From positions 2,060-66,059 of the forward strand of contig NDHX01000006.1 of the NCBI GenBank assembly GCA_013626165.1: a stretch of 64,000 bases of DNA, in the 5' to 3' direction. A program made the position numbers and the translations under genes. This DNA is from Candidatus Velesiimonas alkalicola. GTDB taxonomy: Bacteria; Omnitrophota; Gorgyraeia; Velesiimonadales; Velesiimonadaceae. The notes below the pieces were generated by a model. It saw only the letters and a program-made list of their open reading frames with translations. It did not search any database and was not told where the DNA came from. Below, piece by piece: positions 3,439 to 61,578 of this stretch (its first letter is position 1; each line of letters begins with the position of its first letter).

Positions 3439-3484
3439 ATTTCCCCCTCTTTTCTCTTGCTTGTGAGCCGATTACTTGTTATCT

Positions 3485-5746: not shown

Positions 5747-6189
5747 ACTAATGATTATCCACAGGCAGATAATGATAACTTCTACCTATTGGAAGAGTGC
5801 ATTTCACAATCTACCAAACATAAACACATGTGATAATACTTTTCAGGAAAAAATCTTACTGATGATTATCACCAGGCAGATAATGATAATACCTACCAAT
5901 ACTGCTGCTACCAGTTTATTTTTTTTCCACTCTGCTGCCATATACCCTCCTTGTTTTTTCCTCTTTTACCCACTTAGAAGCGAATATTTTATAGTTTACC
6001 AAACATAAACATAAAAGTCAATATTTTTGGATTTGCGAGGGCTCAGGCCTGAAGTAATCCTGTCGTTGCGAGGGCTCAAGCCCGAAGCAGTCTCATCTTT
6101 ACTGTGATTGCCACGTTCTTTTCAGTTGCTCGCAATGACTAACAAAAAAACGTGCCTGACTTTAATAATAAGCCAAGACAGGGCTCTGT

Positions 6190-11043: not shown

Positions 11044-11122
11044 AAGACCCCTTTATAATAAAGATAATAAAAAAATAACAAATGACAAATGACAAATGGC
11101 GGTTTCCTGAACTGACAAAAAT

Positions 11123-13802: not shown

Positions 13803-14018
13803 TAGTTTATCTCTTTATATTTATGGGCGAAATGGCGTATAACCGTTGGATAACCTGCAATCCCACTGATTTCAAATTTTAAATCCCCGTTTTCACAAAG
13901 ACAAGTTTTGATTGAATTCTTAAATTATTTAATTTTTAAACATTTAAAATTTAGAGTAAAGTATTGTTATAGCACTAAATATTATTAAGTTTATAATTAA
14001 AAAGCAATTTCAAAACTT

Positions 14019-14072
14019 TTGTCATTTGACACTTGTCATTTAACATTTGTCATTTGAGATTTGTCATTTTTT
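14019..14072. repeat. Four tandem 14-bp repeats TTGTCATTTNNNNN
   Basis: ttgtcatttgacac / ttgtcatttaacat / ttgtcatttgagat / ttgtcattt, immediately 3' of the oxidoreductase operon. Related TTTGTCATT runs occur at 11062-11085 and 58-85. Confidence 0.8.
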
Positions 14073-19317: not shown

Positions 19318-20360
19318 TAGAAGTATCGCATAAATTGTTTTACAACTATAGGTTAAACTAAATAAAAATAGATAATTACCGATAATATATATAAGAGGAT
19401 ATATGGAAATAAGGTTACATAAGAATGCTACTACCTTAAAGATAAGGGATGAGATAAAGAAAAGTAAATTAAGTATAAATGCATTAGCAACTAAATACAA
19501 TATAGGTTGGCATACAGCAAAAAGATGGAGGGAAAGAGAGGATATTCAGGATAGGACATCTCGTCCACACAAATTAAATATAACCTTAACTAAAGAGGAA
19601 GAAGACCTAATATTATTTGAGCGCAAACAAAAGAAATTATCTTGTGAGGATATATATTGTATCCTAAAAGATAAAATCCATAATTTATATCCTATGAAGG
19701 TATATAGATGTGTAGCAAGGAATGGGTTTGGGATAATACCAGAAGAATTTATAAAAGAAGAGAGAAAAATTAAGAAGTTCAAGAAATACACAATAGGGTA
19801 TTTGCATGTAGATACACTCTATGCGCCTAAAATAAACACGACCCAAAATCAAAGATTTTGTGTGCCCGGGCATTATATCTTCACCTGTATAGACAGAGTA
19901 TCAAAGTTAGCATATGTGATAGTAGTAAAGAATAAAAATATGAAAAATAGCAAGATATTATTAGAGAAGGTATTAAAATTTTATCCATATAAGATAAATT
20001 ATATTTTAACAGATAACGGACAAGAGTTTTGTTATAATGCCTTACCAAAGAGTAAAAAGACTAAAAAGATGCATCCATTTGTTAAAGTATGTAAGGATAA
20101 TAAAATACAGCACAGAACAATAAAATTTAAGCACCCATGGACAAATGGACAGGTAGAAGCAATAAATAAGAAAATTAAGCAAAGGGTATTGACAAAATAT
20201 ATTTTTTCTGATACATTAGATTTAGAAAATAAATTGATAGAGTTTACAGAGTATTATAACAAGGAGGCAAAATTAAAAACTTTGGGATATAGGTCTCCCA
20301 AAGAGTACTTAATTGAGAAATATAATATTCAACTAACGTAGCGTTGTAAAACAATTAAAG
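19318..20360 (+). mobile_element. IS481/IS3-like insertion sequence with 14-bp terminal inverted repeats
   Basis: Left end aattgttttacaac (19322-19335) and right-end reverse complement aattgttttacaac (20343-20358). The AT-rich content (~28% GC) carries a single DDE transposase. Confidence 0.75.
19403..20341 (+). CDS. DDE transposase (integrase-core rve domain), IS481-like
   Basis: 312 aa with an N-terminal HTH and a catalytic region with TDNGQEF and HPWTNGQVE motifs. Confidence 0.8.
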   Translation: MEIRLHKNATTLKIRDEIKKSKLSINALATKYNIGWHTAKRWREREDIQDRTSRPHKLNITLTKEEEDLILFERKQKKLSCEDIYCILKDKIHNLYPMKVYRCVARNGFGIIPEEFIKEERKIKKFKKYTIGYLHVDTLYAPKINTTQNQRFCVPGHYIFTCIDRVSKLAYVIVVKNKNMKNSKILLEKVLKFYPYKINYILTDNGQEFCYNALPKSKKTKKMHPFVKVCKDNKIQHRTIKFKHPWTNGQVEAINKKIKQRVLTKYIFSDTLDLENKLIEFTEYYNKEAKLKTLGYRSPKEYLIEKYNIQLT

Positions 20361-20488
20361 AAAAGACTAAAATCTATTCTGTTAGCAGGCAGGTAAAAAG
20401 GCAAAGAAAATTGTTTGACAGTTTAAGAAAGAAGAGTTAAAATAAAGTGGTCTTTTGAAAAAGTAATATGGGGTTTACTGAATTTACA
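20355..20488 (+). repeat. 134-bp direct repeat, copy 1, abutting the IS right end
   Basis: Near-identical to 23676-23808, with 2-3 mismatches. Confidence 0.9.
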
Positions 20489-21800: not shown

Positions 21801-23675
21801 GAGGAGAGGAGATGGCAAAGATTAAGGGAGTAAAGGCGAGGATGTGTGCTGGCTGACCACATAGGTAACACTGGACTACGGATTTTAGCAAGTTCCTTTT
21901 CAATATATTCTACGAGAAAGTTCACTGAACCCCATCAACCTTATCTATTTGCCCCCTGAATCTCACAAGCCAATTTCTTATTCATCGCTTTTCTAAAACA
22001 GAAGTCTGTCATTAAGTGGAAAAAGACAAAAGTATACCCCTGACCTGTTGTGAATTTTCCAAAAAACTTCACATTACAGATGATAGATAATAGGACAGGA
22101 TAATTGTAATTATAAGTAGCACATTGCCCCCGAAGAAGCTACTCAGGTGCCTGTTGTTCAGGCTTACCCATTGTCCCAGACAATAGTTGTAATTTCAGGT
22201 GTGGTGGTCTCTTTTCCTTAAATAGCCTGCAGTAAGAATCTTCTCAAGTCTTTAGAAAGACCATTTCCTTAGCATATTCTTCAAAGTAGTATTCTAAACA
22301 GCTGCAAGAGTCTGATCCATTAAAAGATAGCTCTGGGTCATTGTAAAAAAACAGCTTTTATTTCTTCCCCTATCTTAGAGTAATTACTGTAGTAATTTTT
22401 CCTGCCAAGAACTGACATCTTAAAACACCTTTCTGCCAGATTATTATCTATAGGTACAAAAGATGCTTTACAAAGATAGTTAATCTTTTCCAATGTTCTT
22501 TAAGACTTTCTATTGCTTTAATCTGCTCTGGATGTTCATATTTTTGCCGGCTACGTTCTTTTGTCTTTTCCAATTTCTCTACCAACTGCTCCTGATAGAT
22601 AGAAAACTTATCAGGATTATTTAGCTGTGCCAGATGTTTTTCATTGATAAGATAGAGATTGGCAATATTATTTATTCATTCCTGTACCCAATAAGTAAGA
22701 ACATAGTGTCTTCTGGATATTTATCCTGTATCTTGATAAAATCTTTTCTTATAAAAATATCCAGGTCTGAAAGTTTCACCTGGAAGACCTGCCTTTGTAA
22801 AAAAAGACTGAAAAGATACTTATTCAGAATTACCTTAACCCAAAAGCTTACATCAAATTTACCCTTCTATGTATAATCTTTGGAGAAAAGAAGAAGTTAT
22901 AATAGGATTTAGACAAGAACAGGTTTTCTTATATTTCCTGCTCTGCTTTCTTCTTAAGAAAATAGGTCTTTCTTACCACTATCTTATAGGAATCTTCTGC
23001 AGTAGATAATTCTTCTAAAGACAATCTACATCTTTTACAATATCTTTCTTCTTTGGGTAATTTACAGAACTTTTCTACTTTTGGTAAGTTTTCAGGAGTC
23101 TTTTGTCTATAATACTTGGTAACTATCCTGAGCTTCTTGTTCTCTCCTTTCTGCTTTTACTTTTTAGACAGGTTTACTATCTTAAGTAAGAACAGGCATC
23201 TTTCTTGTAGCTTTGTTTTTCTATACTTTCTATTTTTATTTTTAGAATTCTATTTTCTTTTCTAAGTTTTTGATTTTTTCTCTTAAACTTTCCTTGTAAA
23301 CCAGTTGCATCTTTTACTTCTTTTTCTTTAGTATCTTCAAAGCATCCTTACATATTAGAGGCTAAATTCTTTATCTTTACCCAGGGGAAAATCAAAAAAA
23401 GAGGGAGGGGAGTTTAATTATTCTTTCTTTCTCTATTTGCAAGAAGAGCCTTTTTTAATGCATGCTGTTTTAATTGAGCATTTTGACCAGGCCAATTTAT
23501 CTTTTCACAAATTATTTAAGAGAGTTTGGTTTGAGAAAGATGAAAGTTCTTCTTTATAATCTTTTTTATTTCTTTTATTTTCTCTTTCAGTAAATTGCCG
23601 ACCATGATATATATTTTTCATCTTACAATAAATTATCATAAAAGAAAAAGCAATGTAAGTTTTTAGAATTATTTA

Positions 23676-23808
23676 TTAAAGAAAAGACTAAAATCTATTC
23701 TGTTAGCAGGCAGTTAAAAAGGCAAGGAAAATTGTTTGACAGTTTAAGAAAGAAGAGTTAAAATAAAATGGTCTTTTGAAAAAGTAATATGGGGTTTACT
23801 GAATTTAC
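23676..23808 (+). repeat. 134-bp direct repeat, copy 2
   Basis: Matches 20355-20488. It is preceded by ORF-poor AT-rich DNA (21.85-23.67 kb) containing stop-ridden reading-frame fragments. Confidence 0.9.
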
Positions 23809-28733: not shown

Positions 28734-30095
28734 CTAAAGACAATACCCAACCAGTGTGCAATTGTGAACATCTTTGACAAGAACATTGAAAATCTGCCCC
28801 GGTATAAACCTCGTTGGATATGGCAAGCTATCCAGTGGGGTAAACCTATCAACAGGGAAAACAATATTTCTGTTCTTTCTTGTATGTCCTTTTGCCCATA
28901 TGTTAGCGTCTATAGATTTTTTGACAATTTTTTCAACAAGGACTTCCTGTTCTGTGCCTATCAATCTTCTTAAATTATATTTTGCTATAGAAGAAACAAG
29001 GTCAAGTGCTACCCTGTGCCTTGACTTTTTATCGTTTATACTTACATCATCGGAAAGATTATAGGCAGATGTTCCTTTCCTCGTAGAATATTTATACACA
29101 AATGCACCGTCAAACCTTATTTGCTTTAAAACAGAAATCGTATCTTTGAAATCTGTATCTTTTTCCGATGGAAAGCCTACAATTATATCCGTTGTTATAG
29201 AGCACTGCGGAATTATAGACTTACATTTTTCTATCAGTTTAAGATAATATTCCCTTGTATATCCTCTGTTCATAAGCGTTAATATCCTGTCTGAACCGGA
29301 CTGTAAGGGAAGATGGATATGTTCGCACACATTGGGAAGTTCAGCAATTGTTTTAAGAAGTTTTTCATCCACATCCCTTGGATGGCTTGTCAAAAACCTT
29401 ATCCTTTTTATATCAGTTTCTTTATTTATGATTTTCAAAAGTTCAGTGAAATCACATTCTTGATATTTATATGCAGACACATTCTGTCCTAAGAGTGTAA
29501 CCTCCTTTACTCCTTTATTTGTCAAATCTTTTATTTCCCGGACAATCTCTTGCACCGGACGGTTTTTTAATTTTCCTCTTGCATAAGGAACAACACAATA
29601 TGAACAAAAATTTTCGCACCCCTTTGCAATATTTACAAATGCCGATACTTTGCTGTTTACAGATATACTTGTATTATCAGGATAATTCCTTCCAACCTCA
29701 AGTATATTTTTCTCTCCGTTTATTACTCTCTGAATAATATTGCCCATTAAACCTGTATCATCAGGTCCACATGCGAAAGAAAGTCCGGGTATTTTTTCAA
29801 AAACTTCCTCCCTGAGCAACTGCACAGAACATCCTACAAGCCCAACAACCGCCCCTGGTTTCTTTGATATTACATCTTTTGCATACTCTATCGCCCTGTT
29901 TTGAGCATGCTCTCTTACGGAACAGGTATTAAATAGGACAACATCAGCATCCTCAATACCATCAGACACAACAAATCCATCTGTCAGAAGACAGGACAAA
30001 ATCATCTGACTATCCCTTTTATTCATCTGACATCCGAAGGTACGGATAAAGATTTTTTTTGGCATATTTTTATAAGTTTTTGATTCTTTTGACAT
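28734..30095 (-). CDS. miaB: tRNA-i6A37 methylthiotransferase
   Basis: 453 aa with an N-terminal MTTase domain (TFGCQMN), a radical-SAM CxxxCxxC (CENFCSYC) and a TRAM domain. Confidence 0.9.
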   Translation of the reverse strand: MSKESKTYKNMPKKIFIRTFGCQMNKRDSQMILSCLLTDGFVVSDGIEDADVVLFNTCSVREHAQNRAIEYAKDVISKKPGAVVGLVGCSVQLLREEVFEKIPGLSFACGPDDTGLMGNIIQRVINGEKNILEVGRNYPDNTSISVNSKVSAFVNIAKGCENFCSYCVVPYARGKLKNRPVQEIVREIKDLTNKGVKEVTLLGQNVSAYKYQECDFTELLKIINKETDIKRIRFLTSHPRDVDEKLLKTIAELPNVCEHIHLPLQSGSDRILTLMNRGYTREYYLKLIEKCKSIIPQCSITTDIIVGFPSEKDTDFKDTISVLKQIRFDGAFVYKYSTRKGTSAYNLSDDVSINDKKSRHRVALDLVSSIAKYNLRRLIGTEQEVLVEKIVKKSIDANIWAKGHTRKNRNIVFPVDRFTPLDSLPYPTRFIPGQIFNVLVKDVHNCTLVGYCL

Positions 30096-30219
30096 TGTAG
30101 TTTCTTTTCTGTTTCTGAAAACAAAAAATTAAAGTGGGCAAAAAGAAAAAAAGAAATTTTTTTGTGGTAACGCCCCGCCGATGGCGGGGGCGATCTTGAT
30201 GTTTTTAAAAAGCAGCCCG
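30053..30219. repeat. 167-bp direct repeat A (terminator hairpin + miaB promoter + first 14 codons of miaB)
   Basis: Identical, with one substitution and a poly-T length difference, to 37856-38021. It contains the GC hairpin cgccccgccgatggcgggggcg followed by a T-run. Confidence 0.9.
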
Positions 30220-31712
30220 GCGAGCTGTTTCTTATCAGCAAAGTCTATTTTTTCTTTGCTGTCATCGTACCCATCAAGAAAGTCTTTTACTCTGTTAATA
30301 TAGCCCTCTGAGTGTTCTCGTTCAATTTCTCTAAGTTCATATCCTGCAAAGAGTTTTTTCAAGTTTTTTTCTTCGTTTCTGAGGCTTGAATTTTTCTCGC
30401 GATAGACATCTTCGCCAAGCAAATTTTCCAGATAAGCGTCTGTAAGTCTTGACTGTTTTTCTTGGTTAATTTTCAGCTTATCTTTGAACAAACCCACGTC
30501 ATTGCGAGGTGTTGACATCCCTGATGTCAACACCGAAGCAATCTCAAGACCAGTCCCTGTCGTCCATCGGCTCTGTTTTAGGCGTTCGTTTTGGACCAAC
30601 TGAGCAACTATTTTTGTGGCCTCCGGCTCTATATCCTCTGCCTTCACTGCCCTGTTGGTACAATTTATATGGCTTGAATAAGGACCTGAACACCTATACT
30701 AACGTTTCTTCCTATTCAAGCGATGGTTTGATATGGACGATACACCTGTATACCTATGATTGCACTTAGCACAAGCGATAAGACCTGTCAAAAGATACTC
30801 TTGACTTTTTGTTCTCGGTCGCCATGTTCGTGTCTTGTTCGCCAGCAGCTTCTGAACTTCTACAAAATCTTCTCCATCTATGATAGGCTTATGCCTTCCC
30901 TGTGCAACAAGAACTTTAGAAGGATCATTTCTGATATATTTGTAATGTTTTTTGGTTTTCTGATTCTTGTCATAGTGTTTTTTATTCCAAACAATCTTAC
31001 CGGTGTAAATCTGATTCTTAAGTATGTCACAAACAAACTTGTTGTAAAATTGTTTGCCTGTCCTTGTCTTGTATCCTTTCCTATCAAGGTATGCTGCTAT
31101 GTCGTGTGTGCTCTTGCCGGAAATATACATCGTATATATCAGCTTAACGATATTCGTTTCTCTTTCTTCAACCTCTAATAGCTTCTTGGTTTTGTTATAA
31201 GCATAGCCGAATGGCGCAAATCGTGCGCCTTGCCAGTTGCCTTGTTGAACGCCTTTCATCATGCCAGGGAATACCCTTTCAGCAATCCGGTTTCTTTCAA
31301 ACTCGGCAAACGAGCCAAGCTGCTGAAACATCAGTGTCCCTGCTGATGTCGTTGTGTCAAAAGGTTCTGTTGCAGATTTGAAGCCAACGCCATAGGAAGA
31401 TAGCTCATCCACCAGCATAAGCAAGTCTTTAAGGTTGCGACTAAAGCGATCGATCTTATGGACCAACACAAGCTCAAACCTCTTTGCCTTCGCATCAGCA
31501 AGCAACTGTTGTAAAGCCGGGCGACGCGTGGAATATGCACTTATGCCATCATCGCAATACACCTTGAAAACTTCATATCCTTCACGATTAGCAAAGGATT
31601 CAAGGTATTCTTTTTGTACTTCTAAAGAATAACCTTCTTTGGCTTGGTCTTCAGTAGATACTCGTGTATAAATTGCTATTCTTAGCTTTTCATTCATTTT
31701 TAATATCCACAA
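30129..31712 (-). pseudogene. Large serine recombinase (integrase), split by a frameshift into 337-aa and 172-aa ORFs
   Basis: The N-terminal resolvase catalytic domain (IYTRVSTEDQ, Ser nucleophile) is followed by a recombinase domain and a zinc ribbon (CAKCNHRY). The coiled-coil C-terminal part continues in another frame from 30647. The last ~30 codons run into repeat A. Confidence 0.75.
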
Positions 31713-33042: not shown

Positions 33043-33503
33043 CGGCTGCTTTTTAGCAGCGGCTAGGGAGCTGATGCAGTCCCGCCGCAGGCGGGGCAAA
33101 AACATCAAAATCGCCCACAAAAAGCTCTTTTCTTTTGAATTTTTTGCCCCCTTTAATTTTTTATTTTTTGAGGAAAAACAAAAATGCCAAACCAAGAACC
33201 TAAAAAGAGTTACAAATTTTTTGCCTCCAAAGTCTTTATCCGGACTTTCGGCTGGCCTTATGCTTCGGCTTTACAATATACTTTATTTGTTCTTTAAGAT
33301 TCAATGAACTTTAGGCACCGCCTGCTTAGGCAGGCTCCCGGTGTGGTGTTTGCACCGTTCAGCTTCGCTGTCGCTCAGCTTCACTCCACGCTCGCTTGGA
33401 CGCTCGCTAAAGTGGTAATGCAATAGTCCGATTCGGCTTTGTGTTGGACGCATTTTGGGTGGCGGCAAAATGCGCCCAACACCCTGCGTCCTCAACCTCG
33501 CAA
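33043..33503. repeat. Inverted copy (B) of the ~450-bp unit that is also present at 37584-38021
   Basis: It holds a diverged reverse complement of the 167-bp miaB-promoter repeat (33043-33200), then cttcggctttacaatatactttatttgttctttaagattcaatgaac, then a GC-rich ~190-bp segment (33315-33503) nearly identical to the reverse complement of 37584-37772. Confidence 0.85.
33315..33503 (+). ncRNA. Candidate structured ncRNA, copy 1 (unknown class), GC-rich with nested stems
   Basis: ~60% GC in a ~35% GC context. Multiple perfect stems (CACCG-CCUGC-UUAG-GCAGG-..-CGGUG; GCAUUUUG/CAAAAUGC inside GUUGG/CCAAC). It is duplicated exactly, and the only ORF is a duplicated composition artefact. Confidence 0.4.
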
Positions 33504-37583: not shown

Positions 37584-37772
37584 TTGCGAGGTTGAGGACG
37601 CAGGGTGTTGGGCGCATTTTGCCGCCACCCAAAATGCGTCCAACACAAAGCCGAATCGGACTATTGCATTACCACTTTAGCGAGCGTCCAAGCGAGCGTG
37701 GAGTGAAGCTGAGCGACAGCGAAGCTGAACGGTGCAAACACCACACCGGGAGCCTGCCTAAGCAGGCGGTGC
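37584..37772 (-). ncRNA. Candidate structured ncRNA, copy 2 (reverse complement of copy 1)
   Basis: Near-identical to the reverse complement of 33315-33503. It is positioned ~90 bp downstream (minus sense) of the duplicated miaB promoter copy. Confidence 0.4.
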
Positions 37773-37855
37773 CTAAAGTTCATTGAATCTTAAAGAACAA
37801 ATAAAGTATATTGTAAAGCCGAAGCATAAGGCCATCCGAAAGTTCGAATGTAGAC

Positions 37856-38021
37856 TTTTTTTGGCATATTTTTATAAGTTTTTGATTCTTTTGACATTGT
37901 AGTTTCTTTTCTGTTTCTGAAAACAAAAAATTAAAGGGGGCAAAAAGAAAAAAAGAAATTTTTTTGTGGTAACGCCCCGCCGATGGCGGGGGCGATCTTG
38001 ATGTTTTTAAAAAGCAGCCCG
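37856..38021. repeat. 167-bp direct repeat C (copy of the miaB terminator/promoter/first 14 codons)
   Basis: Matches 30053-30219, including atgtcaaaagaatcaaaaacttataaaaatatgccaaaaaaa (MSKESKTYKNMPKK). Confidence 0.9.
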
Positions 38022-38177
38022 CACATCTCTTTCTTGGTAGCAAAATCTATTTTTTCCTAAACGTGCGGGTTTAATTAATCCTTTTCTCTCCCAGATCCCA
38101 AGTGTAGCTGGGCAAACTTTTAAAGACTTGGAGACTATACCGATAGTATAAACTGGTTCTTTATATCCATATTCCAT
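38007..38177 (-). CDS. Small MerR-family HTH protein (56 aa), candidate excisionase/recombination directionality factor
   Basis: MEYGYKEPVYTIGIVSKSLKVCPATLGIWERKGLIKPARLGKNRFCYQERDVRAAF has a MerR/Xis-type HTH. It is below the 60-aa cutoff of the ORF track, and its last codons lie inside repeat C. Confidence 0.45.
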   Translation of the reverse strand: MEYGYKEPVYTIGIVSKSLKVCPATLGIWERKGLIKPARLGKNRFCYQERDVRAAF

Positions 38178-38254
38178 CCTAAACCTCCTCTTTTTCTCAA
38201 TATAGAGGTTTTTATATCATATATAAATACTATTGTCAAATGGATTGCAAGTAA

Positions 38255-38494
38255 TTACTCTACAATGTCTCCAACTACTGGCTCAACCTTTACGCCTTGT
38301 CGTTCCAAATACCTTCTTCCCTTTTCCAAATTCTCCTTTGTGCCACTCAACTCTAAAGTTACTTCTCCTATTTTTTCTGTAACCTTTGCCCTGCGGATAT
38401 TCGGGACTACTTCATACTTCTTTGCCATAGTATAAATCACAGGCTTCTTAATTAGCCTTTGGGGAAATACTAAATGTACCATTTTCTTTGCCAT
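38255..38494 (-). CDS. NIL-domain protein (MetN C-terminal-like small ferredoxin-fold domain)
   Basis: 79 aa with the PNI(R/L) signature region. It sits in a sulfur-carrier gene context. Confidence 0.5.
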   Translation of the reverse strand: MAKKMVHLVFPQRLIKKPVIYTMAKKYEVVPNIRRAKVTEKIGEVTLELSGTKENLEKGRRYLERQGVKVEPVVGDIVE

Positions 38495-38497
38495 AGC

Positions 38498-39313
38498 TTA
38501 CTCCTCCTTTATTTTCTTGAGACTACAAAACTCCTCATAATCTATTAGTTTTGTAACTGTTGGGCTTTCTCCGCAAATTTGGCATTTTGGATCTTTGGGA
38601 ACCTTAACCTGCCGAAAAGAAGAATCCAAAGCATTAAATACTAAAAGCTTCCCTGCTAGAAGATTTCCTATTTCTAAGATATATTTTAGTGCCTCATTTG
38701 CTTGGATTGTGCCAATTATCCCAGCAACTGCCCCCAATATGCCTGCTTCTTGGCAACTTGGCACAAGGCCAGGTAGTGGTGGTTCTGGAAATAAACATCT
38801 ATAACAAGCGCTTTGATGCGGCAATATTGTGATTGCCTGACCGTCAAATCTAAATATGCCTCCATGAGATAATGGCTTACGAGATATGACACAGGCATCA
38901 TTTACCAAATAGCGCGTTGGAAAGTTATCCGAGCCGTCAACAATAATGTCGTAATTCCGAATAATATCCAATATGTTTTCTGAAGTAAGCCTGAGGTTAT
39001 AAGTAATAACTTCCACATCGGGATTTATACCAGTCATTCTCTCCTTTGCGGATTCAACCTTAGTCTTTCCCACGTTTGAATTCGAATGGAGAATCTGTCT
39101 TTGAAGGTTATTAAGTTCAACCTTATCTGAATCTACAATCCCGATCTTACCAATTCCTGCAGAAGCTAAGTATAATGCGCAAGGAGACCCTAATCCACCT
39201 GCACCTATTATTAAGACTTTGGCATTAAGTAATTTCTCTTGGCCTTTTCCGCCTACATTGGGTAGTATTATCTGCCGTGAATATCTTTCAATTTGGTCTT
39301 CGCGTAATTTCAT
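38498..39313 (-). CDS. E1-like adenylyltransferase of the MoeB/ThiF/MoeZ family with C-terminal CxxC zinc motifs
   Basis: 271 aa with a Rossmann ATP-binding GAGGLGS motif and downstream CYRC and CQIC pairs. Confidence 0.85.
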   Translation of the reverse strand: MKLREDQIERYSRQIILPNVGGKGQEKLLNAKVLIIGAGGLGSPCALYLASAGIGKIGIVDSDKVELNNLQRQILHSNSNVGKTKVESAKERMTGINPDVEVITYNLRLTSENILDIIRNYDIIVDGSDNFPTRYLVNDACVISRKPLSHGGIFRFDGQAITILPHQSACYRCLFPEPPLPGLVPSCQEAGILGAVAGIIGTIQANEALKYILEIGNLLAGKLLVFNALDSSFRQVKVPKDPKCQICGESPTVTKLIDYEEFCSLKKIKEE

Positions 39314-39591
39314 TATCTTCCTCCTGCTATTGCTGGAATTATCGAAACTTCATCGCCATCTTCCAGGAGAGTTTGGTCTTGTTGCAGGAATCGTACATCC
39401 TCTTCATTTACATAGATGTTTATAAATCTACGAACCTTACCTGTTTCATCACAAATTCTTCCTTTAATCCCTGGAAAATTTCTCTCTAAATCATCGATTA
39501 ACTCTTTTATGTTTGTGCCATTTGCTTGGATCTCTGACTGGTTTTTAGTTAATTTCTGAAGTGGTGCTGGAACTCTAACTTTAATTGCCAT
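39313..39591 (-). CDS. MoaD/ThiS/CysO-like sulfur-carrier (ubiquitin-fold) protein ending ...AGGR
   Basis: 92 aa with a beta-grasp pattern and a C-terminal Gly-Gly followed by one extra residue. It overlaps the E1 start. Confidence 0.75.
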   Translation of the reverse strand: MAIKVRVPAPLQKLTKNQSEIQANGTNIKELIDDLERNFPGIKGRICDETGKVRRFINIYVNEEDVRFLQQDQTLLEDGDEVSIIPAIAGGR

Positions 39592-39604
39592 CTTTGCAAC
39601 CTCC

Positions 39605-40303
39605 TTATTCCTTTACGTTTTCTTTAAAAGAAGCGATATTAGGTTTAATTTTAATTGGCTTTCCTATCTTCTCTACAACAGCTTCCTGAGTCTTCAAACC
39701 ATTGCCTGTTACGCATACAACAATAGATTCATCTTTAGGTATCTTGCCTTGCTCAATGAGCTTCTTTGTTGCACCTAAAGTCACACCCCCTGCTGTCTCA
39801 GCAAATATTCCCTCTGTTTCTGCTAGAAGTTTTATTGCCTCAACAATTTCATCATCAGTCACGTCTTCAGCATAACCGCCAGACTCCTTTACAGTTCCAA
39901 CTGCATATACACCATCTGCTGGATTCCCAATAGCTAAAGATTTAGCGATTGTGTTCGGCTTAACTGGTCTTATGATATCGGAATCTTCTTTAACGGCAGT
40001 AACTATAGGACAACAGCCTGTGGCTTGAGCCGCATGAATTTCTGTATCAACTTTGTCAATCAATCCTATGGTCTTAAATTCTTTTAACCCTTTCCAGATT
40101 TTGGTGATTAAAGAACCGCCGGCACAGGGAACTATAAAGTGTTGACTAACGATACATTAAGTATACAACTTAATGTATCGTTAGTCAACACATAATCAAC
40201 CTCTAAGGGGCCAAAGCAGTACTCGCATACATAGAGAGGCTTTTTTGGATATGTTCTTTGGCATTCTCTGCACTTTAATCCTTTAACATAACTTATATTT
40301 TCA
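39605..40303 (-). pseudogene. thrC: Threonine synthase (zinc-ribbon-containing type) remnant with an internal deletion and stop
   Basis: The N-terminal zinc ribbon LKCRECQRTYPKKPLYVCEYCFGPLEVDY (40197-40300) runs in-frame into the 53-bp palindrome and a TAG stop. The C-terminal part (QHFIVPCAGGSLITKIWKGL...VVCVTGNGLKTQ, 39605-40138) is in another frame. About 200 aa, including the PLP-lysine region, are missing. No ATG is in frame at the 5' end. Confidence 0.7.
40139..40191. repeat. 53-bp near-perfect palindrome (24-bp arms, 5-nt centre), copy 1
   Basis: gtgttgactaacgatacattaagt-ataca-acttaatgtatcgttagtcaacac. A second copy lies at 58141-58191. Confidence 0.9.
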
Positions 40304-40305
40304 CC

Positions 40306-40542
40306 TCAGGCTTTCTTAATTAACAGTCTCCACTTATTATCTAATTTTTCTACTTTCATGATTTCATGCCCTTCTTCTTTCACAGCCCGAGGAACATTTT
40401 TAATAGGCTCGCCATCATCTAAAATCACCTCTAAAACTTGCCCCTGCTCCATCTCTTCAAGTTTAAGCTTTGTTCTAACAAAGCTGTTAGGACACGCTAC
40501 TTTTTCCAAATTTAAAGTCTCGCGCGGCTTTATAGCATTCAT
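40306..40542 (-). CDS. TusA/SirA-like sulfurtransferase
   Basis: 78 aa with a conserved Cys in a VACPNSF (CPx[P/S]) motif and a two-layer alpha/beta pattern. Confidence 0.65.
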   Translation of the reverse strand: MNAIKPRETLNLEKVACPNSFVRTKLKLEEMEQGQVLEVILDDGEPIKNVPRAVKEEGHEIMKVEKLDNKWRLLIKKA

Positions 40543-41396
40543 CGGACGTACTCCTTATAATTATCCAACCCGACCCTGTCTAAGGTGTCCCTGAACCGCT
40601 CGCCTTGTTTGCCGAATTCTTTGTAAAACTGCAATGTTTTTTCTATAATCTTGAATACCTCTTCCTTTGTTTCCACAAAATCAAATGCCCTTATGCCTAA
40701 TTTCGGGAATTTGCCCATCTTTCCACCTACGGAGATAGTGTAACCATCCTGCCTTTTCTGCCAGGCATTGGTTGGACAAGAGTATACACAGTCACCGCAA
40801 CCTATGCACTTATCTTCATGAAATATAATCTTTTCGTTGTCTTTATCCACCTCTATTGCACCCACTGGGCAAACTTGCGCACATAAACCACAGTAATCGC
40901 AGTTTTCCTTTACGAATCTCTTCTTCAGCCGACCCATTATTCCTAAGTCATTCTCCTGGGGTTTAATACAGGCATTTGGACAGCCGGTAATTCCTATCTT
41001 AAATTTATGTGGGTATCCCCCTATGCCAAAGAATTTTTTGTCAATCTCTCTTGCCAAAAAGAGACAATCTATTAAACCGTGGCTGCACTCTTTGCCTTGA
41101 CAGGCAGTTACAGTCCTTACCCTCTGGCCGCAGGCGCCCATTTCAAGCTCAACCTCAGCAAGTTCTTTTCTTACTTTCTCAAAGTCCTTAAAGTTTATGT
41201 TGGGGATCTCAACACCCTGTCTTGTGGTCAAATGGATATATCCTTTGCCATATTTATTGGCGATTTCTGAAAGTATAACTAATTGTTCAGACTTAACATA
41301 TCCACCCACAACTCGCAGGCGCAGAGAAAATAAATCCTTTTCCTTTTGCTTCATTAAACCACCACTTTTTAATTCTTTTATATTGTATTCAGCCAT
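40539..41396 (-). CDS. Small sulfite/nitrite-reductase-like protein (siroheme/[4Fe-4S] Cys motif) with a C-terminal 2x[4Fe-4S] ferredoxin domain
   Basis: 285 aa with a NIR_SIR-type Cys cluster (TACQGKECSHGLIDC...GCPNAC) and two ferredoxin motifs (CDYCGLCAQVCP, CIGCGDCVYSCP). It is AsrC/Fsr-like and small. Confidence 0.6.
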   Translation of the reverse strand: MAEYNIKELKSGGLMKQKEKDLFSLRLRVVGGYVKSEQLVILSEIANKYGKGYIHLTTRQGVEIPNINFKDFEKVRKELAEVELEMGACGQRVRTVTACQGKECSHGLIDCLFLAREIDKKFFGIGGYPHKFKIGITGCPNACIKPQENDLGIMGRLKKRFVKENCDYCGLCAQVCPVGAIEVDKDNEKIIFHEDKCIGCGDCVYSCPTNAWQKRQDGYTISVGGKMGKFPKLGIRAFDFVETKEEVFKIIEKTLQFYKEFGKQGERFRDTLDRVGLDNYKEYVR

Positions 41397-51463: not shown

Positions 51464-51503
51464 CCACAGAGAACACAGAGAATTAACTCTGTGCCCTCTG
51501 TGG
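51464..51503. terminator. Hairpin ccacagag-aacacagag-aattaa-ctctgtgcc-ctctgtgg between the efflux pump gene and pstC
   Basis: An 8-bp perfect outer stem plus an inner stem, flanked by T-rich tracts. It is a plausible intrinsic terminator for the RND operon. Confidence 0.4.
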
Positions 51504-51562
51504 TTTATTTTGTGGTCTATTTATCATTTTTCCGTCATTACTGCAAGTTTATTTTACATTTT

Positions 51563-54681: not shown

Positions 54682-55710
54682 TTAATGCGGATGGCCGTGG
54701 GCACCGAAGTCAATAGCCGCTTTCTGGAGTTCAGCTTTCAGGTGAAAACCACCTTTGGTCACTACCTGTTCACCAAGTTTAAGCCCGGCAATCACTTCTG
54801 AAAACTCCTCCCCTGTCGTTCCTAATTTGATTTCCCTCAGTTTGTATCTGTTGTCCCCTATTGGTATGAAAACAATTTCTTTGTTTTCCCATCTTTGTAT
54901 TGCTGAATTGGCAATAGATACCATTTTGTGAGGAGCCGTGTAAATTATATCTCCTGTAACAAACTTACCGAGTTTCAGCGTGTGGTCATAGTTATCAATA
55001 TCTACCCTTATTTTTATAGTTCTTGTTCTCCTGTCAACCCGTGGAGAGATGAATGTTATTTCACCGGGGTAAATCTTGCCGGGATATGCACGGGTTTTCA
55101 CTTTGACTTTTTGTCCCAATTTTACAATGGCTATATCTTTTTCATAGACATCAAAACTTGCTTTCATCGTAGATATATCGGCTATTGTGAAAAGAGAAGT
55201 AAGCATGTCCACTTCTTCTCCCTCAGAAATACGTTGTCCTATAATTAGTGTCCCACTGGGAGATTTTATCTCTTCAATTTTCCCGTCTTTACTGCCTTTG
55301 ACAAGTGCCAGTAAAGTTCCTTTTTCCACATTATCCCCCAAACCAACTTTAACTTCAACTATCTCACCCGGAATATTGGAAGTGACATGGAATAATTTCT
55401 CGCTATCCTGGGCTATCTCTCCGGTAATTCGTAGACTTTTCTTTATATGCCGCATAGCAACCTTATCTGTTTTTAATCCTATCATCTTCTTGCCCCGAGT
55501 AGATATTTGGACAACACCTTCCTCCTCGTGCTCGTGATGAACTCCTTCATCGTGCCTGTGTGGATGTCCCTCTTCAAAACACCAGCAATGGCAGCCCTCT
55601 CCATGTTTATGCGGATGCTCCTCTTCCCTGAATCCTCTCCACACTAATATTCCCACAATTAAACAAACTATACCTACAATTAACAGCCACGGCCAATAAG
55701 ACCTTTTCAT
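54682..55710 (-). CDS. Periplasmic adaptor (membrane fusion protein, CzcB/CusB-like) with a His/Cys-rich N-terminal metal-binding segment
   Basis: 342 aa with a TM anchor, then HPHKHGEGCHCWCFEEGHPHRHDEGVHHEHEEEG, then lipoyl/beta-barrel MFP domains. Confidence 0.85.
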   Translation of the reverse strand: MKRSYWPWLLIVGIVCLIVGILVWRGFREEEHPHKHGEGCHCWCFEEGHPHRHDEGVHHEHEEEGVVQISTRGKKMIGLKTDKVAMRHIKKSLRITGEIAQDSEKLFHVTSNIPGEIVEVKVGLGDNVEKGTLLALVKGSKDGKIEEIKSPSGTLIIGQRISEGEEVDMLTSLFTIADISTMKASFDVYEKDIAIVKLGQKVKVKTRAYPGKIYPGEITFISPRVDRRTRTIKIRVDIDNYDHTLKLGKFVTGDIIYTAPHKMVSIANSAIQRWENKEIVFIPIGDNRYKLREIKLGTTGEEFSEVIAGLKLGEQVVTKGGFHLKAELQKAAIDFGAHGHPH

Positions 55711-55766
55711 AGTTCACCTCCTGTTGTTTTTTCTAAAATCGCCAACTTTGTTTGATGGTCAAGTAT
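55604..55766. repeat. 163-bp direct repeat (adaptor-gene 5' end + upstream region); second copy at 56777-56939
   Basis: Near-identical copies. A third partial copy at 55921-56017 lies inside the coding region of the 321-aa paralogue. Confidence 0.9.
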
Positions 55767-55917
55767 AGACATAGTGTACCGTCCCATAAGTCCCTTTACA
55801 TTTGTCATTGCGAACAAAGTGAAGCAATCTTGTTTTCTGAACCAAAAAGTGAGATTGCTTCGTTGCATCGCCCCTCGCAATGACAGCCAAATGTCAAGAA
55901 ACGTTAGGGACACTACA

Positions 55918-56883
55918 CTAGTGCTCGTGATGAACTCCTTCATCGTGCCTGTGTGGATGTCCCTCTTCAAAACACCAGCAATGGCAGCCCTCTCCATGTC
56001 TATGCGGATGTTCCTTTTTTCTTTCAGCTTCAGCAATGGCATAGGCGCCTTTGGTCACAACGCGCTCACCATCGGATAGACCAGACAAAACCTCTACAAA
56101 GTCATTATCTCTGTTGCCCAGTTCCAGATAACGTTTCTCAAAGGTTTCGCCGGCTACCTGGACGAAAGCTACTGGCTTGCCGTTTTCATCAATCAGAGCC
56201 GACTCTGGTACAACCAAGGTCTCCTGTCCTATCGCTTTTCGTCGTCCCACAGGTTCGGCCCTGGTTAGCATTTTCCATTGCTGTTCCTTGAGAAAACTTA
56301 TGCCAGCGATCTCTTTAGGAAATGGAGCACGGTCAACTTCTTCATGGGAACCATATACCTCAAAAGGCGGCAGTTCGACGAGATGATCTTTGCCTTCAAG
56401 GGGGATAACCAGCGACAGACTCCACTCACCAGGTAGTGGAAAAGTTAGTTCTGGAATGTAAATACCGTCTCTAACCGGAGCCCGTGCGATATGCTTGTCC
56501 GGTGTCTCGGAGCCGCGACGCAAAATGAAAGTAACGGGTCCTTTTCCCCGAGGCTTAAGTGTTTGCAGGTCGGAGACATGGGTGATAAATTTGGTTGGTG
56601 TATTTGCCACGATAAATGCATGCTCAAGGAAAATTTCGAATCGCTCGGTCCAAACCGTGACCTGGGACGATTTTTCTGCGCCATGACCAATATGGACAGG
56701 ATGCTCTGCGTCATGTTTGTGTGCATCTTCCTCCTTCCCTTGTTGTTCGAAACAATAGCAATGGCATACCTCTCCGTGTTTATGCGGATGCTCCTCTTCC
56801 CTGAATCCTCTCCACACTAATATTCCCACAATTAAACAAACTATACCTACAATTAACAGCCACGGCCAATAAGACCTTTTCAT
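55918..56883 (-). CDS. Chimeric, shortened periplasmic adaptor paralogue with His/Cys-rich segments at both termini
   Basis: The N-terminal 38 aa and the C-terminal HPHRHGEGCHCWCFEEGHPHRHDEGVHHEH are identical to the neighbouring adaptor. The middle has a unique domain plus an MFP C-terminal beta-barrel-like segment (ETLVVPESALIDENGKPVAFVQV...GERVVTKG). Confidence 0.6.
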   Translation of the reverse strand: MKRSYWPWLLIVGIVCLIVGILVWRGFREEEHPHKHGEVCHCYCFEQQGKEEDAHKHDAEHPVHIGHGAEKSSQVTVWTERFEIFLEHAFIVANTPTKFITHVSDLQTLKPRGKGPVTFILRRGSETPDKHIARAPVRDGIYIPELTFPLPGEWSLSLVIPLEGKDHLVELPPFEVYGSHEEVDRAPFPKEIAGISFLKEQQWKMLTRAEPVGRRKAIGQETLVVPESALIDENGKPVAFVQVAGETFEKRYLELGNRDNDFVEVLSGLSDGERVVTKGAYAIAEAERKKEHPHRHGEGCHCWCFEEGHPHRHDEGVHHEH

Positions 56884-58115
56884 AGTTCACCTCCTGTTGT
56901 TTTTTCTAAAATCGCTAACTTTATTTGATGGTCAAGTATGGACCTAAAATAACTCAATCGAGTCCCTTTGAATGTTGTTAGAACTTCAAGATAGGTTAAA
57001 AAATCGGTTTTTCCTTCCGCATATTGCATCTCAATCAGCCTGATTAATTCGCTTCCTTTCTTTACAGATTTTTCCATCAGTGCCACTTGCCTATCAGATA
57101 AAACAACCTCCCCAAAGGCATTGTTAACTTCTAATTCTATCTGCCTTTTGAGGAAATTTATTTGATATTCTATCTTTTGTGACTCATTTCTTGCCTCTGC
57201 AATCTCACCTTGTTTTCTATACCAGAAAGGTAAAGGTATTCCCAGGGTGACTCCCAATCTCTGTTCTCTGTCTTCCCGTTCTGCCCAAAAACCGACGGAG
57301 GGGTTAGCAAACCTCTCTTTTCTCATCAATTTTACCTCCATATTTTTTGAATCAAGCATCAGTTTTTTAGCCTTAAGGTCTGGCCTGTTTATCAAAGCAT
57401 TTTTTATAAGCGTGTCTAAATCAAACCGCCTCTCTTTATAAACAAATTCATCGGTGCAAACGAATTTATGAGAGACCGATCTCCCGAGTAAAATATTTAA
57501 TTTTGCCTTATTAAGAGAGAGATCTTTTTCGGCTACTAATAACTCATTTTGAGCGTAAAACATCTCAATCTCCGCCCTGAGTAATTCACTCCTTAAAACT
57601 TCTCCAAGATTAAATTTCTCCCGGACTTTATCCAAAAATTTCCTGGTTAGATTTAAAGACTCCTCAGCAAGTTCCTCTATTTTTCTTGCCAACAATATCT
57701 GAGCATATGATTCCTTAACCTTAAAAGAGACCCCCAAGTGGATTAACTCCAACTCACTTTCGTAGATTTTAATCTCATTTCTTGCCATATTTCCCCGGAG
57801 TGTTCTTTTCCCAAAGAGTTCCAATTCTTGACTGACTTCAACTTCTACACCTCCGGAAGGATTTTTCATTACCGTCTCAAGTTCAGGATTAGGATAAGCC
57901 AAAGCCTGAACAACTCTTGCCCTTGCTGATTCAATATTTTTTTCTGCTGTCACTATTTCAGGATTATTTATAAAAGCGATTTTCAATGCCTCTTCCAAAG
58001 AAAGTTTTTCCAACTCTTCCCCTCCGGCTATCTTAATATGGAAGGACATCAATGTTAACACGATAAGAACGACCTTCATCACAACCTCCTCTGGTATAAT
58101 CTTCACCCTAGACAT
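56880..58115 (-). CDS. Outer-membrane efflux protein (TolC/CzcC/CusC family)
   Basis: 411 aa with a signal peptide and two OEP repeats. It is translationally coupled to the downstream adaptor gene. Confidence 0.8.
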   Translation of the reverse strand: MSRVKIIPEEVVMKVVLIVLTLMSFHIKIAGGEELEKLSLEEALKIAFINNPEIVTAEKNIESARARVVQALAYPNPELETVMKNPSGGVEVEVSQELELFGKRTLRGNMARNEIKIYESELELIHLGVSFKVKESYAQILLARKIEELAEESLNLTRKFLDKVREKFNLGEVLRSELLRAEIEMFYAQNELLVAEKDLSLNKAKLNILLGRSVSHKFVCTDEFVYKERRFDLDTLIKNALINRPDLKAKKLMLDSKNMEVKLMRKERFANPSVGFWAEREDREQRLGVTLGIPLPFWYRKQGEIAEARNESQKIEYQINFLKRQIELEVNNAFGEVVLSDRQVALMEKSVKKGSELIRLIEMQYAEGKTDFLTYLEVLTTFKGTRLSYFRSILDHQIKLAILEKTTGGEL

Positions 58116-58140
58116 CCTAGAGCGAATTGGTTAGTAAATT

Positions 58141-58191
58141 GTTAGATAACGATACATTAAGTATACAACTTAATGTATCGTTAGTCAACAC
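58141..58191. repeat. Second copy of the 53-bp palindrome (left arm slightly degenerate)
   Basis: ...aacgatacattaagtatacaacttaatgtatcgttagtcaacac, with a ~46-nt identity to 40146-40191. It lies between the OMP gene start and pstS. Confidence 0.9.
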
Positions 58192-60099: not shown

Positions 60100-60408
60100 T
60101 TACGACAGCGCCTTTGCCAAATCATCTTTTAAGTCAATTTTATTTTCAATGCCGACGGATAGACGGATAAGATTTTCTTTTATCCCCCGTTTTGACCTCT
60201 CTTCTGCAGATAGAGAACTGTGAGTCATTTTTGTAGGATAACAGGCGAGCGATTCAACCCCGCCCAGCGACTCCGCCAGCAGGAACAATTTTAATTTTGA
60301 TACGAATTTTTCAACGGCGGGAAAGCCGCCTTTTATCTCAAAACTTATCATCCCTCCGAAACCGCTCATCTGTTTTTTTGCAAGATTATATTGTTTACTA
60401 CCCGGCAA
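60100..60408 (-). pseudogene. C-terminal ~100-aa remnant of a Cys/Met-metabolism PLP enzyme (cystathionine gamma-synthase/lyase family)
   Basis: 102 aa matching only the C-terminal domain (GFGGMISFEIKGG...LAESLGGVESL...HPATM-like). Its AT-rich codon usage is like the host. It lies 30 bp downstream of a complete GC-rich homologue. Confidence 0.7.
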
Positions 60409-60438: not shown

Positions 60439-61578
60439 CTAACCTTCAGTTTTTGCCAGCGCCTGCTCCAAATCCTCGATTATATCCTCGATATTCTCCA
60501 ATCCCACGGAGAGTCTCACCAGGTTATCGAAGATACCCACCTTCTCCCGGAACTCCTTCGGCATCGAGGCATGGCTCATGGTAGCCGGGTGCTCTACGAG
60601 GGAATTAGCGCCGCCAAGGGACTCCGCTAGAATGAATAGCTCGACACCTCTCAAGAACGAGTTAACCTCGCCATTTATCTCGAAGGACACCATCCCGCCG
60701 AAACCGTCCATCTGCCGGGCGGCGATCTCATGACCCGGATGAGACTTCAGTCCGGGATAGAATACCCTGCTTACCCGGGGGTGTTTCTCCAGAAATGAGG
60801 CGACCGCGGCAGCAGACATCGCATGCTGCTTAACCCTCAAAGGCAGGGTCTTGATCCCGCGAAGCACCAGCCAGCAGTCAAAGGGTGAGGCACAGGTGCC
60901 CAGAGCATTCAAGAGAAATTGCACCTTTTGGGTTAGATCATCGGTAGCGGTCACTATCGCCCCACCGACAACATCGCAGTGGCCGTTGAGATACTTGGTA
61001 GTAGAATGCACCACCAAATCAACGCCATACTCAATTGGCCGCAGGAAACAGGGCGTGGGAAAGGTATTATCCGCCATGGTCAACAGATTATGCTTTCGGG
61101 CAATATCTACCACCATCTCTACATCCGTGATATTTAGCAGCGGATTGGAGGGGGTCTCGATCCATATCATCCTGGTATTGGGCCTTATGGCATCCTCGAT
61201 CTCCCGTCTGTTATTCAGACGTAGGAAGGTAAACTCCAATCCGAAGTTGGTCATCACATCTTGAAACAGACGGTAGGTTCCGCCGTAGATGTCATCTCCG
61301 GAGATCACATGGTCTCCGGCCTTCAGCAAATATATTGCGGTGGCTTCGGCAGCCATGCCGGTGGCAAAGGCAAATCCCGCCTTTCCGCCCTCGAGCCTGG
61401 CGATGGTCTCCTCCAACACCTTCCTGGTGGGGTTGGAGGTGCGAGAATAGTCGTAGCCCCTGGTCTTGCCCACATCCTCAAAGGCAAAGGTGGAGGTCTG
61501 ATAGATCGGTGTGATTAATGCGCCGGTGGTGGGATCGGGCTTTTCGCTGCCATGAATCGCTAATGTTTCGAATCTCAT
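60439..61578 (-). CDS. Cystathionine gamma-lyase/gamma-synthase / O-acetylhomoserine sulfhydrylase family PLP enzyme
   Basis: 379 aa, full-length Cys_Met_Meta_PP pattern, ~55% GC. Confidence 0.85.
   Translation of the reverse strand: MRFETLAIHGSEKPDPTTGALITPIYQTSTFAFEDVGKTRGYDYSRTSNPTRKVLEETIARLEGGKAGFAFATGMAAEATAIYLLKAGDHVISGDDIYGGTYRLFQDVMTNFGLEFTFLRLNNRREIEDAIRPNTRMIWIETPSNPLLNITDVEMVVDIARKHNLLTMADNTFPTPCFLRPIEYGVDLVVHSTTKYLNGHCDVVGGAIVTATDDLTQKVQFLLNALGTCASPFDCWLVLRGIKTLPLRVKQHAMSAAAVASFLEKHPRVSRVFYPGLKSHPGHEIAARQMDGFGGMVSFEINGEVNSFLRGVELFILAESLGGANSLVEHPATMSHASMPKEFREKVGIFDNLVRLSVGLENIEDIIEDLEQALAKTEG

Follow-up and report, generated by a model that had tools for sequence, protein, structure and literature searches.

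A 51-bp element, very probably derived from an IS481-like insertion sequence, occupies a polymorphic deletion in a ThrC-family gene of Candidatus Velesiimonas alkalicola

In Candidatus Velesiimonas alkalicola, a member of the Omnitrophota, a gene of the threonine synthase (ThrC) family has lost its central part, and a short inverted repeat sits exactly where the two remaining pieces meet. We examined this locus in a 64,000-nucleotide stretch of DNA (assembly GCA_013626165.1, contig NDHX01000006.1, positions 2,060 to 66,059 of the forward strand), referred to here as the window. The inverted repeat is very probably a 51-bp miniature inverted-repeat transposable element (MITE) that derives from an IS481-like insertion sequence (IS) and is joined to points approximately 588 bp apart in the gene, which it knocked out in a recent event that is still polymorphic.

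A first-pass annotation had described the gene as a threonine synthase pseudogene with its N-terminal zinc-ribbon segment and its C-terminal part in different frames, about 600 bp missing together with the region of the lysine that binds pyridoxal phosphate (PLP), and a palindrome that is read through into a TAG stop. Each of these points holds. The N-terminal remnant retains 35 codons, and its frame continues through the inverted repeat to a TAG at 40134-40132. The C-terminal remnant, in another frame, matches positions 160-295 of the 295-position Pfam PALP model (the last 136) as well as the C-terminal half of the NCBIfam thrC models. On TIGR00260 (thrC), it reaches 120 bits as a partial match against a cut-off of 167, compared to 303 bits for an intact relative. 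Two relatives (L006 and L007), with 81-84% protein identity, keep a gene of approximately 408 amino acids in the same gene order, namely CysK-ThiS fusion, sulfite-reductase-like, TusA, ThrC-like, ThiS-like, ThiF-like and NIL. Aligning the window to them, as had been proposed, defines the lost interval as approximately 588 bp (196 codons) in their coordinates. The SFKDR PLP-lysine motif is present in L006, L007 and an intact allele from the same species (L039) and falls within this interval, which also encodes most of the catalytic domain, so the PLP-binding lysine is gone from the window gene. With its two remaining parts in different frames, the gene is nonfunctional in the window allele. The public annotation contains just a 152-amino-acid open reading frame (ORF) at 39605-40063, labelled 'threonine synthase' in a metagenome-assembled genome of candidate division WS2 (P0006); users of that entry should be aware that it is a fragment.

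The first codon of the N-terminal remnant is ATA (40294-40296), not ATG. L007 has an ATG start at this position, and a well-matching ribosome-binding site, GAGGTG, lies ahead of it. We considered ATA as a sign of decay and rejected this, since the intact allele L039 carries the identical codon; either ATA serves here as an uncommon non-canonical start or expression of the gene had already been poor.

The inverted repeat at 40139-40191 consists of two perfect 24-nt arms, GTGTTGACTAACGATACATTAAGT, separated by a 5-nt centre, ATACA. No arm match of this kind appeared in 100 shuffles, and folded as single-stranded DNA the repeat reaches -25.6 kcal/mol (z = -12). It had been reported as a 53-bp perfect palindrome at the joint. 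The perfect arms and an exact junction at the left terminal inverted repeat (IRL) bear this description out, but ATACA is not self-complementary, so the structure is a perfect inverted repeat rather than strictly a perfect palindrome, and the element proper is 51 bp, with one outer base belonging to the gene and the bases at the other edge being stray (Table 1). An Rfam search returned no match at or near the element, and a scan for intrinsic terminators did not call the hairpin.

Table 1. Positions of the gene remnants, the parts of the element and related features in the window.
Feature	Position	Strand	Details
N-terminal remnant of ThrC-family (probably metM-like) gene	40296-40192	minus	35 codons, ISYVKGLKCRECQRTYPKKPLYVCEYCFGPLEVDY, zinc-ribbon CxxC...CxxC; from translation and alignment to the N-termini of L007 and P0120
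C-terminal remnant	40137-39605	minus	177 codons plus stop, no internal stops; frame differs from that of the N-terminal remnant
MITE copy 1, element proper	40140-40190	minus	51 bp, no room for an ORF
Last native gene base before the element	40191	minus	IRL-side junction exact; L039 matches the window (99.8%) down to here
IRL, left terminal inverted repeat of the IS481-like IS	40168-40190	minus	TGTTGACTAACGATACATTAAGT
5-nt centre	40163-40167	minus	TGTAT on the minus strand; loop of the hairpin native to the IS left end
Right arm	40140-40162	minus	11 nt of the IS left-end hairpin, ACTTAATGTAT, plus 12 nt of right terminal inverted repeat (IRR), CGTTAGTCAACA
Two stray bases	40138-40139	minus	CT on the minus strand; foreign to both the element and the intact gene (compared with L043)
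Sigma-70-like promoter motif	40160-40188	minus	TTGACT-17 nt-TATACT, within the MITE, toward the C-terminal remnant and carrier-protein genes
Genes facing the promoter motif	38255-39591	minus	ThiS/MoaD-like carrier (39313-39591); ThiF/MoeB/MoeZ-like adenylyltransferase (38498-39313); NIL-domain protein (38255-38494); from Pfam and NCBIfam
MITE copy 2	58140-58190	minus	native IRR, CGTTATCTAACA; orientation as copy 1; between PstS-like and TolC-like efflux genes
Strain-variable block	58093-58191 (window) vs 2279-4075 (L030)		311-aa sigma-70-family protein, 147-aa ORF and 86-aa DUF4190 protein in L030; MITE plus 47 unmatched nt in the window
Full-length, diverged cousin of the parent IS	19337-20353	plus	312-aa rve-type transposase (19403-20341); 11-nt inverted repeats, TGTTTTACAAC

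The arms lead from the repeat to its parent. Twelve metagenome contigs, from the BBPD-BBPG assemblies, match one arm, and they form two classes. The first (L009, L013/L014, L017 and the thrC locus) has the full inverted repeat in unrelated surroundings. Contigs of the second have one arm only, with unrelated sequences upstream of it, and read on as ...AAGTTGTATACTTAATGT-ATGGAAATAAAGTTACATAAGAATGCCAC. This 39-nt left end occurs beside at least three unrelated flanks and runs each time into ATGGAAATAAAGTTACATAAGAATGCCAC, the start of an rve-type transposase gene. Proteins starting with MEIKLHKNATTT led to full-length elements in other metagenomes (L024-L029), whose left end reads TGTTGACTAACGATACGTTAAGTTGTATACTTA..., also given as TGTTGACTAACGATAC.... 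In these elements the transposase ATG stands at nucleotide 37, the 309-codon ORF (930 nt) terminates within the right end, ...ATCGTTA(G/T)CTAACA, and the total length is approximately 968 bp.

The termini of the parent IS, TGTTGAC...TAACA, are of the TGT...ACA type and form inverted repeats around a single ORF. Such termini, terminal inverted repeats, a single ORF and a length of about 1 kb are traits of the IS481 family (PMC10045372). As in IS481 of Bordetella pertussis, the parent encodes one rve-type DDE transposase, of approximately 309 amino acids, within approximately 970 bp, and IS481 is its best match among hidden Markov models. The transposases score 217.8, 210.9 and 182.8 bits against the NCBIfam IS481 model NF033577, all below its curated cut-off of 224; the next-best family, IS3, lies far under at 75 bits, and Pfam rve and rve_3 match as well. 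The parent departs from the IS481 family in its score (211-218 bits, against the cut-off of 224), in having its ATG 6 nt after a -10 hexamer, and in placing its stop codon inside the right repeat.

Every part of the 51-bp element can be assigned to these IS ends. The IRL of the MITE is identical to the left ends of IS copies with differing flanks (L005, L011 and L018) and near-identical to those of the full-length relatives L024-L029. The TGTAT loop recurs in every full-length left end, and the stem of the left-end hairpin shows a compensatory change from A-T to G-C between the local copies and L026. At the other end, the native IRR in local and related IS copies reads CGTTATCTAACA or CGTTAGCTAACA (L009 positions 1-27; L024-L029). 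The local IS right end at L009 positions 1-27, ...CAACGTATCGTTATCTAACA, is exactly the right arm of a second MITE copy in the window. The palindrome had first been taken to mark an excision, insertion or recombination event, and as a mark of insertion or recombination this reading was right. It is a defined mobile element that carries both IS481-like terminal repeats without a transposase ORF.

One contig, L008, starts with an arm and encodes a 350-amino-acid IS630-family transposase (259 bits, cut-off 100), raising the possibility that the arms are the ends of that element and the repeat a MITE of the IS630/Tc1 type. We rejected IS630 as the parent, and consider its parentage next to impossible. 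When its ends are placed by comparison with relatives from L020-L023, which lie in CTAG targets, the true IS630 begins 64 nt further in (CTA-CTGGTCTGTCCC...GGGACTATCTAC-TAG, CTAG/TA target, three relatives), and the 64 nt between the arm and this end are the start of the IS481-like transposase gene. Moreover, a TA duplication flanks none of the MITE copies. Because the right flank in L008 does not continue the IS481-like ORF, either the IS630 element is nested in an IS481-like element or the contig is chimeric.

The 51-mer is composed of 39 nt from the start of the IS and 12 nt from its very end. It would have arisen from the approximately 970-bp IS by a deletion between the two copies of a 7-nt direct repeat that differ at one position, AATGTAT (IS positions 33-39) and AACGTAT (some 12 nt before the right end). 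Since the join lies inside this repeat, a simple short-repeat deletion explains the origin of the MITE. Such a deletion would have removed the whole transposase ORF while retaining both terminal repeats, the left-end hairpin and the promoter. At the thrC copy and three other loci, the right end reads GTCAACA in place of TCTAACA, and these three adjacent changes render the IRR perfectly complementary to the IRL. Hairpin-templated correction of the quasi-palindrome would produce perfect arms, assuming that no local IS has such an end, and the step from imperfect to perfect palindrome is a candidate natural case of this kind of sequence correction.

A search for further copies, also suggested by the first-pass annotation, found a second one in the window and at least five loci overall with distinct flank pairs (the thrC locus, 58140-58190, L009, L013/L014 and L017). 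Contigs with the MITE have a GC content of 36-38.5%, and the window has 38.8%. Copy 2 is confirmed in the independent Logan contigs L031, L033 and L035, and its right 12-16 nt are identical to the local IS right end (L009 1-27) and to L024. In other strains (L030, L032 and L034), a 1.8-kb sigma-factor module takes its place, with the break in homology falling exactly at 58191. Copy 2, like the thrC copy, sits at a strain-variable replacement whose break coincides with the IRL. Presence of the MITE is polymorphic at these two loci, both of which are replacements rather than clean empty sites. The starts of the two window copies are exactly 18,000 bp apart, a spacing that might hint at a planted or synthetic feature but that we take as coincidence; each copy is separately confirmed by independent contigs, none of which spans both.

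A host regulatory site, such as a promoter with an operator for a dimeric repressor, could also have been copied between loci in the absence of any mobile element. The near-consensus promoter motif inside the dyad fits this idea, as do the positions of window copy 2 and the copy in L009, each shortly before a gene and oriented toward it, and of one left-end copy near a heavy-metal P-type ATPase gene (L005). However, the same sequence forms both ends of elements that bear a transposase, with the promoter placed exactly to drive the transposase ATG. In addition, copies lie inside coding sequence, both in the ThrC-like gene and in another transposase gene in L013, and the flanks of the copies are unrelated. 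We consider a regulatory origin very improbable.

To follow the locus beyond the window, we compared it with public contigs. Four of them, drawn from three NCBI assemblies and a Logan run, agree with the window at 100% identity across a 731-nt region that includes the repeat, and the junctions between element and gene are 100% identical in L001-L004, L037 and L038 (BBPD, BBPE, QLTX, and Logan DRR093101 and DRR093102). Through their exact TusA and ThiS-like proteins, we recovered additional contigs from this species. Among these, L039 (SRR21423783) is 99.8% identical to window positions 41945-40191 and then continues in native codons, DYEKIKKKLTEVV...SFKDRVVAVALSKAKEFGFDTVACA, which read DYEKIKKKL... 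past 40191 and extend through SFKDR. On the other side, L043 (DRR093102) is 100% identical to window positions 40137-37992 and is preceded there by native codons, ...IRPYYAEGSKTYGYEIAEQLGWKAPKHI, its nucleotides at the IRR-side junction reading ...AAGCATATTATAGTTCCC. The element junction itself is carried by L037 (DRR093101) and L038 (DRR093102), so DRR093102 contains both alleles, L038 with the junction and L043 intact. The deletion and intact alleles coexist as a structural polymorphism. Because the flanks of both alleles are identical, the deletion is a recent one, at a locus where the population still varies; this recency accounts for a remnant without further decay.

The first-pass annotation had held that a full-length allele at this position would point to an assembly collapse. 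Intact fragments do exist (L039 and L043), but that conclusion does not follow, as the junctions are identical in independent assemblies. If the genome held the intact gene only, assemblers would have to have jumped through the repeated palindrome. The palindrome is indeed a multi-copy repeat, contigs with the intact gene are at hand, and three Logan contigs (k = 31; L004, L037 and L038) break inside it. Nevertheless, the junctions, GATTATG joined to TGTTGAC and GTCAACA joined to CTTTATAG, are the same in at least five assemblies made from different data with different software. No arm sequence occurs in the approximately 400 visible nucleotides of the lost interval in the intact gene. Other copies share at most 4 nt (left) or 5 nt (right) of flank with the thrC copy. 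Given this limited sharing, the junction k-mers, which are impossible from the intact gene or any other copy found, must come from reads. These independent junction sequences in practice exclude an artefact, to which we assign an extremely small probability.

The two endpoints in the intact gene are ATTATG on one side and ATTATA on the other. In the route that we favor as most likely from the sequence, the MITE would have inserted at the ATTATG site, followed by a transposase-driven adjacent deletion, or a non-concerted integration of both ends, reaching from the other end of the element to the ATTATA site. Adjacent deletions start precisely at the terminus of an element and end at another target-like site, with the element retained (PMC9330008). 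The thrC locus shares all three features: the deletion begins exactly at the element terminus, it ends at a site resembling the other endpoint, and the element is kept. It differs from such IS-mediated deletions in that the actor would be a non-autonomous 51-bp element needing transposase in trans, and in the two extra bases at the far junction.

Homologous recombination between two separate insertions of the MITE or IS could instead have excised the interval and left one copy, with no transposase-driven deletion. The final structure would be the same, with one element, no shared target duplication and native flanks. The MITE arms, identical in either orientation, offer 23-51 bp of homology, both endpoints resemble preferred targets, ATTAT(G/A), and the route has been described for MITEs (PMC9330008). 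This explanation requires, however, two independent insertions 588 bp apart and recombination over just approximately 50 bp of homology; the recovered contigs include no allele with one or two simple insertions; and it explains the stray bases no better than insertion with adjacent deletion does. We therefore consider it unlikely. Copying from the L013 locus by a template switch through flank microhomology was also considered and rejected, as it predicts a junction one base off the observed one.

Several points weigh against insertion of an IS481-derived MITE followed by adjacent deletion. The two bases at the IRR junction (40138-40139) are unexplained, and insertion followed by deletion, two insertions with recombination and a single aberrant integration are indistinguishable by sequence. 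No copy has a clean target-site duplication. In the IS481 family these duplications are mostly 6 bp, with a range of 2-15 (PMC10045372). Around L013/L014, the flanks CTTATG and TTTATG agree in 5 of 6 positions at the 6-bp length, whereas L017 and window copy 2 clearly have none; at the thrC copy, none is expected because of the deletion. The transposase relatives fall just under the NCBIfam IS481 cut-off. Complete local copies of the parent IS are absent among the recovered contigs, which hold its ends only. One left end, that of L008, is interrupted by the IS630 element on a possibly chimeric contig, and the flanks of short-read IS contigs are inconsistent among copies, probably through chimerism. 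The recovered IS ends do not demonstrate an active transposase in the genome of the window. Finally, the promoter of the element is a predicted one, recognized by its match to the consensus.

A profile search places the disrupted gene in the threonine synthase family, and at this level the original identification stands. Its neighbors suggest a function that differs from the assigned one. Directly downstream are a 92-amino-acid ThiS/MoaD-like protein ending in ...AGGR and a 271-amino-acid MoeB/MoeZ-like protein, and a JAB-domain gene lies a few kilobases upstream on public contig L001. Such neighbors fit the thiocarboxylate pathway that yields homocysteine (MetO/MoeZ/Mec/MetM), and in this context a homocysteine synthase of the MetM type is a more probable identity for the gene than ThrC. 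MetM is homologous to ThrC and, under the name of threonine synthase, 'is often misannotated' (GapMind 2026 preprint). The arrangement resembles the MetM/MetO system of Streptomyces albulus (described in the same preprint), in which a ThrC homologue is followed immediately by a ThiS/MoaD-like carrier and a MoeZ/MoeB-like enzyme; the difference is that the intact relative of the window gene passes the generic thrC model. A connection of the ThrC-like gene to the homocysteine protein MA1821 was dropped, since MA1821 is a DUF39/COG1900 protein according to the literature.

Other gene fragments occur in this neighborhood and among the relatives. At 60100-60408, a 102-amino-acid ORF repeats the C-terminal part of the adjoining 379-amino-acid PLP enzyme of Cys/Met metabolism (60439-61578) and is probably a further gene fragment in this neighborhood of sulfur-amino-acid genes. 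In L007, a 2-nt gap at approximately 5985-6000 (TATA-AAG vs TATATAAAG) splits the ThrC-like gene into ORFs of 108 and 307 amino acids, which reflects either a sequencing error or another, independent inactivation. A different ThrC-like protein, P0120, has an internal deletion of its own, with ...DTVACA joined directly to GGSLITKIW. The residues CA stand at either edge of the lost interval (VACA ahead of STG, and VPCA ahead of GG). Either another lineage has independently lost the same central region, or the join is an artefact.

The promoter motif inside the MITE matches the consensus at 10 of 12 positions and shares the top score with two other sites in 38000-40700. In the full-length IS ends, the -10 hexamer stands 6 nt ahead of the transposase ATG, a spacing that suggests a transposase message without a leader. 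Within the MITE, the motif is directed outward across the right end. At the thrC locus, the former transposase promoter would now point into the downstream carrier-protein genes, a possible side effect of the insertion; at other loci it faces a TolC-like efflux gene (58 kb), a small gene (L009) and no gene (L013). Together with the exchange of the sigma-factor module for the MITE at 58 kb, these positions hint at promoter replacement, though the loci are too few for more than a hint. One could go further and see in the 51-bp element a portable promoter whose insertions, coupled to deletions, rewire operons. Under this proposal, it would have removed a metM/thrC-like biosynthetic gene here and would drive the carrier-protein genes behind it, and it would have replaced the sigma-factor module before a metal-efflux-type operon at 58 kb, and the differences between strains would be selected regulatory variants, not neutral damage. 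We regard this broader proposal as quite doubtful.

The event is of a commonplace, known kind, namely a gene knockout by a miniature IS derivative with an associated deletion, and it does not overturn current understanding. Bacterial MITEs formed by internal deletion of an IS include the Correia elements (CREE) of Neisseria and RUP of Streptococcus pneumoniae, which is associated with IS630-Spn1. The 51-bp element resembles them in being non-coding, in having the ends of an autonomous IS that is found in the same community, and in occurring in multiple copies at unrelated loci. It is much shorter than other MITEs, being essentially two ends only. It also differs from the known bacterial MITEs in having a complete -35/-10 motif, not half a promoter, and one of its sub-lineages is a perfect palindrome with arms of 23-24 nt. 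Repetitive extragenic palindromes (REPs) and bacterial interspersed mosaic elements (BIMEs), with their REP-associated tyrosine transposases (RAYTs), are likewise short, palindromic, multi-copy and often intergenic. REPs, however, relate to Y1 transposases of the IS200/IS605 type and lack DDE-type terminal repeats, whereas the arms of the MITE are the ends of a DDE (rve) IS, and the element needs no RAYT. MITEs can carry promoter elements and disrupt genes (PMC9330008).

The lineage is poorly known, the element is unusually minimal, and the event is polymorphic in the population. An odd 'scar' becomes a defined mobile element family in a candidate phylum without cultured members, and the element illustrates in compact form how a MITE can retain an entire promoter. 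Loss of the gene is segregating and not fixed, which matters for metabolic reconstructions of the lineage: the capability for methionine/homocysteine or threonine synthesis would be mis-scored depending on which strain is binned.

The window also holds a full-length cousin of the parent IS (Table 1). The first 33 nt of its transposase gene (19402-19434) are 94% identical to the ATGGAAATAAAGTTACATAAGAATGCCAC start of the parent gene, and its transposase is P0241 of 'bacterium Unc6', on a 94-kb contig. An adjoining segment of approximately 3.3 kb is bracketed by 134-nt direct repeats with 98% identity (20354-20487 and 23675-23808). A scan of the genome collection for the hairpin core returned a single match, in L005, which is binned as Chloroflexota (GC 51%) and has its IS left end near the heavy-metal P-type ATPase gene. 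A non-coding stretch of approximately 200 nt at 21907-22119 of the window is 86% identical to L005 2395-2591, directly abutting that left end. A higher GC content (47-49%) is likewise seen in several other contigs with IS left ends, so that either different organisms may share the IS or the bins may be mixed.

Other parts of the window show repeats and rearrangements of their own. A 58-nt hairpin-containing repeat (...CCACAGAGGGCACAGAGTTAATTCTCTGTGTTCTCTGTGG...) lies between an RND pump gene and a PstC-like gene at 51465-51522. In the other strain, a copy with 100% identity (L030 2291-2348) marks the edge of the 1.8-kb block; the repeat may be another small repeat family or a terminator. A 220-300-nt repeat has three copies (30031-30254, 33204-33503 and 37584-38056), 93-94% identical and one inverted, which bracket a serine-recombinase-like gene and pairs of nucleotidyltransferase/HEPN-type genes and end beside a small MerR-like gene. 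L042 departs from the window just at this place (37584-37990), in what looks like another mobile or invertible segment. At 54682-56946, two adjoining HlyD-like genes have near-identical N-termini and His-rich segments (repeats D2 and D3; 95-96% identical), and the C-terminus of the TolC-like protein recurs in a short ORF between them, which suggests that part of the efflux operon was duplicated recently. Four tandem 14-nt units (TTTGTCATTTGACA-like) at 14014-14069, with an inverted counterpart at 11067-11098, approximately 2.9 kb away, look iteron-like or like element ends.

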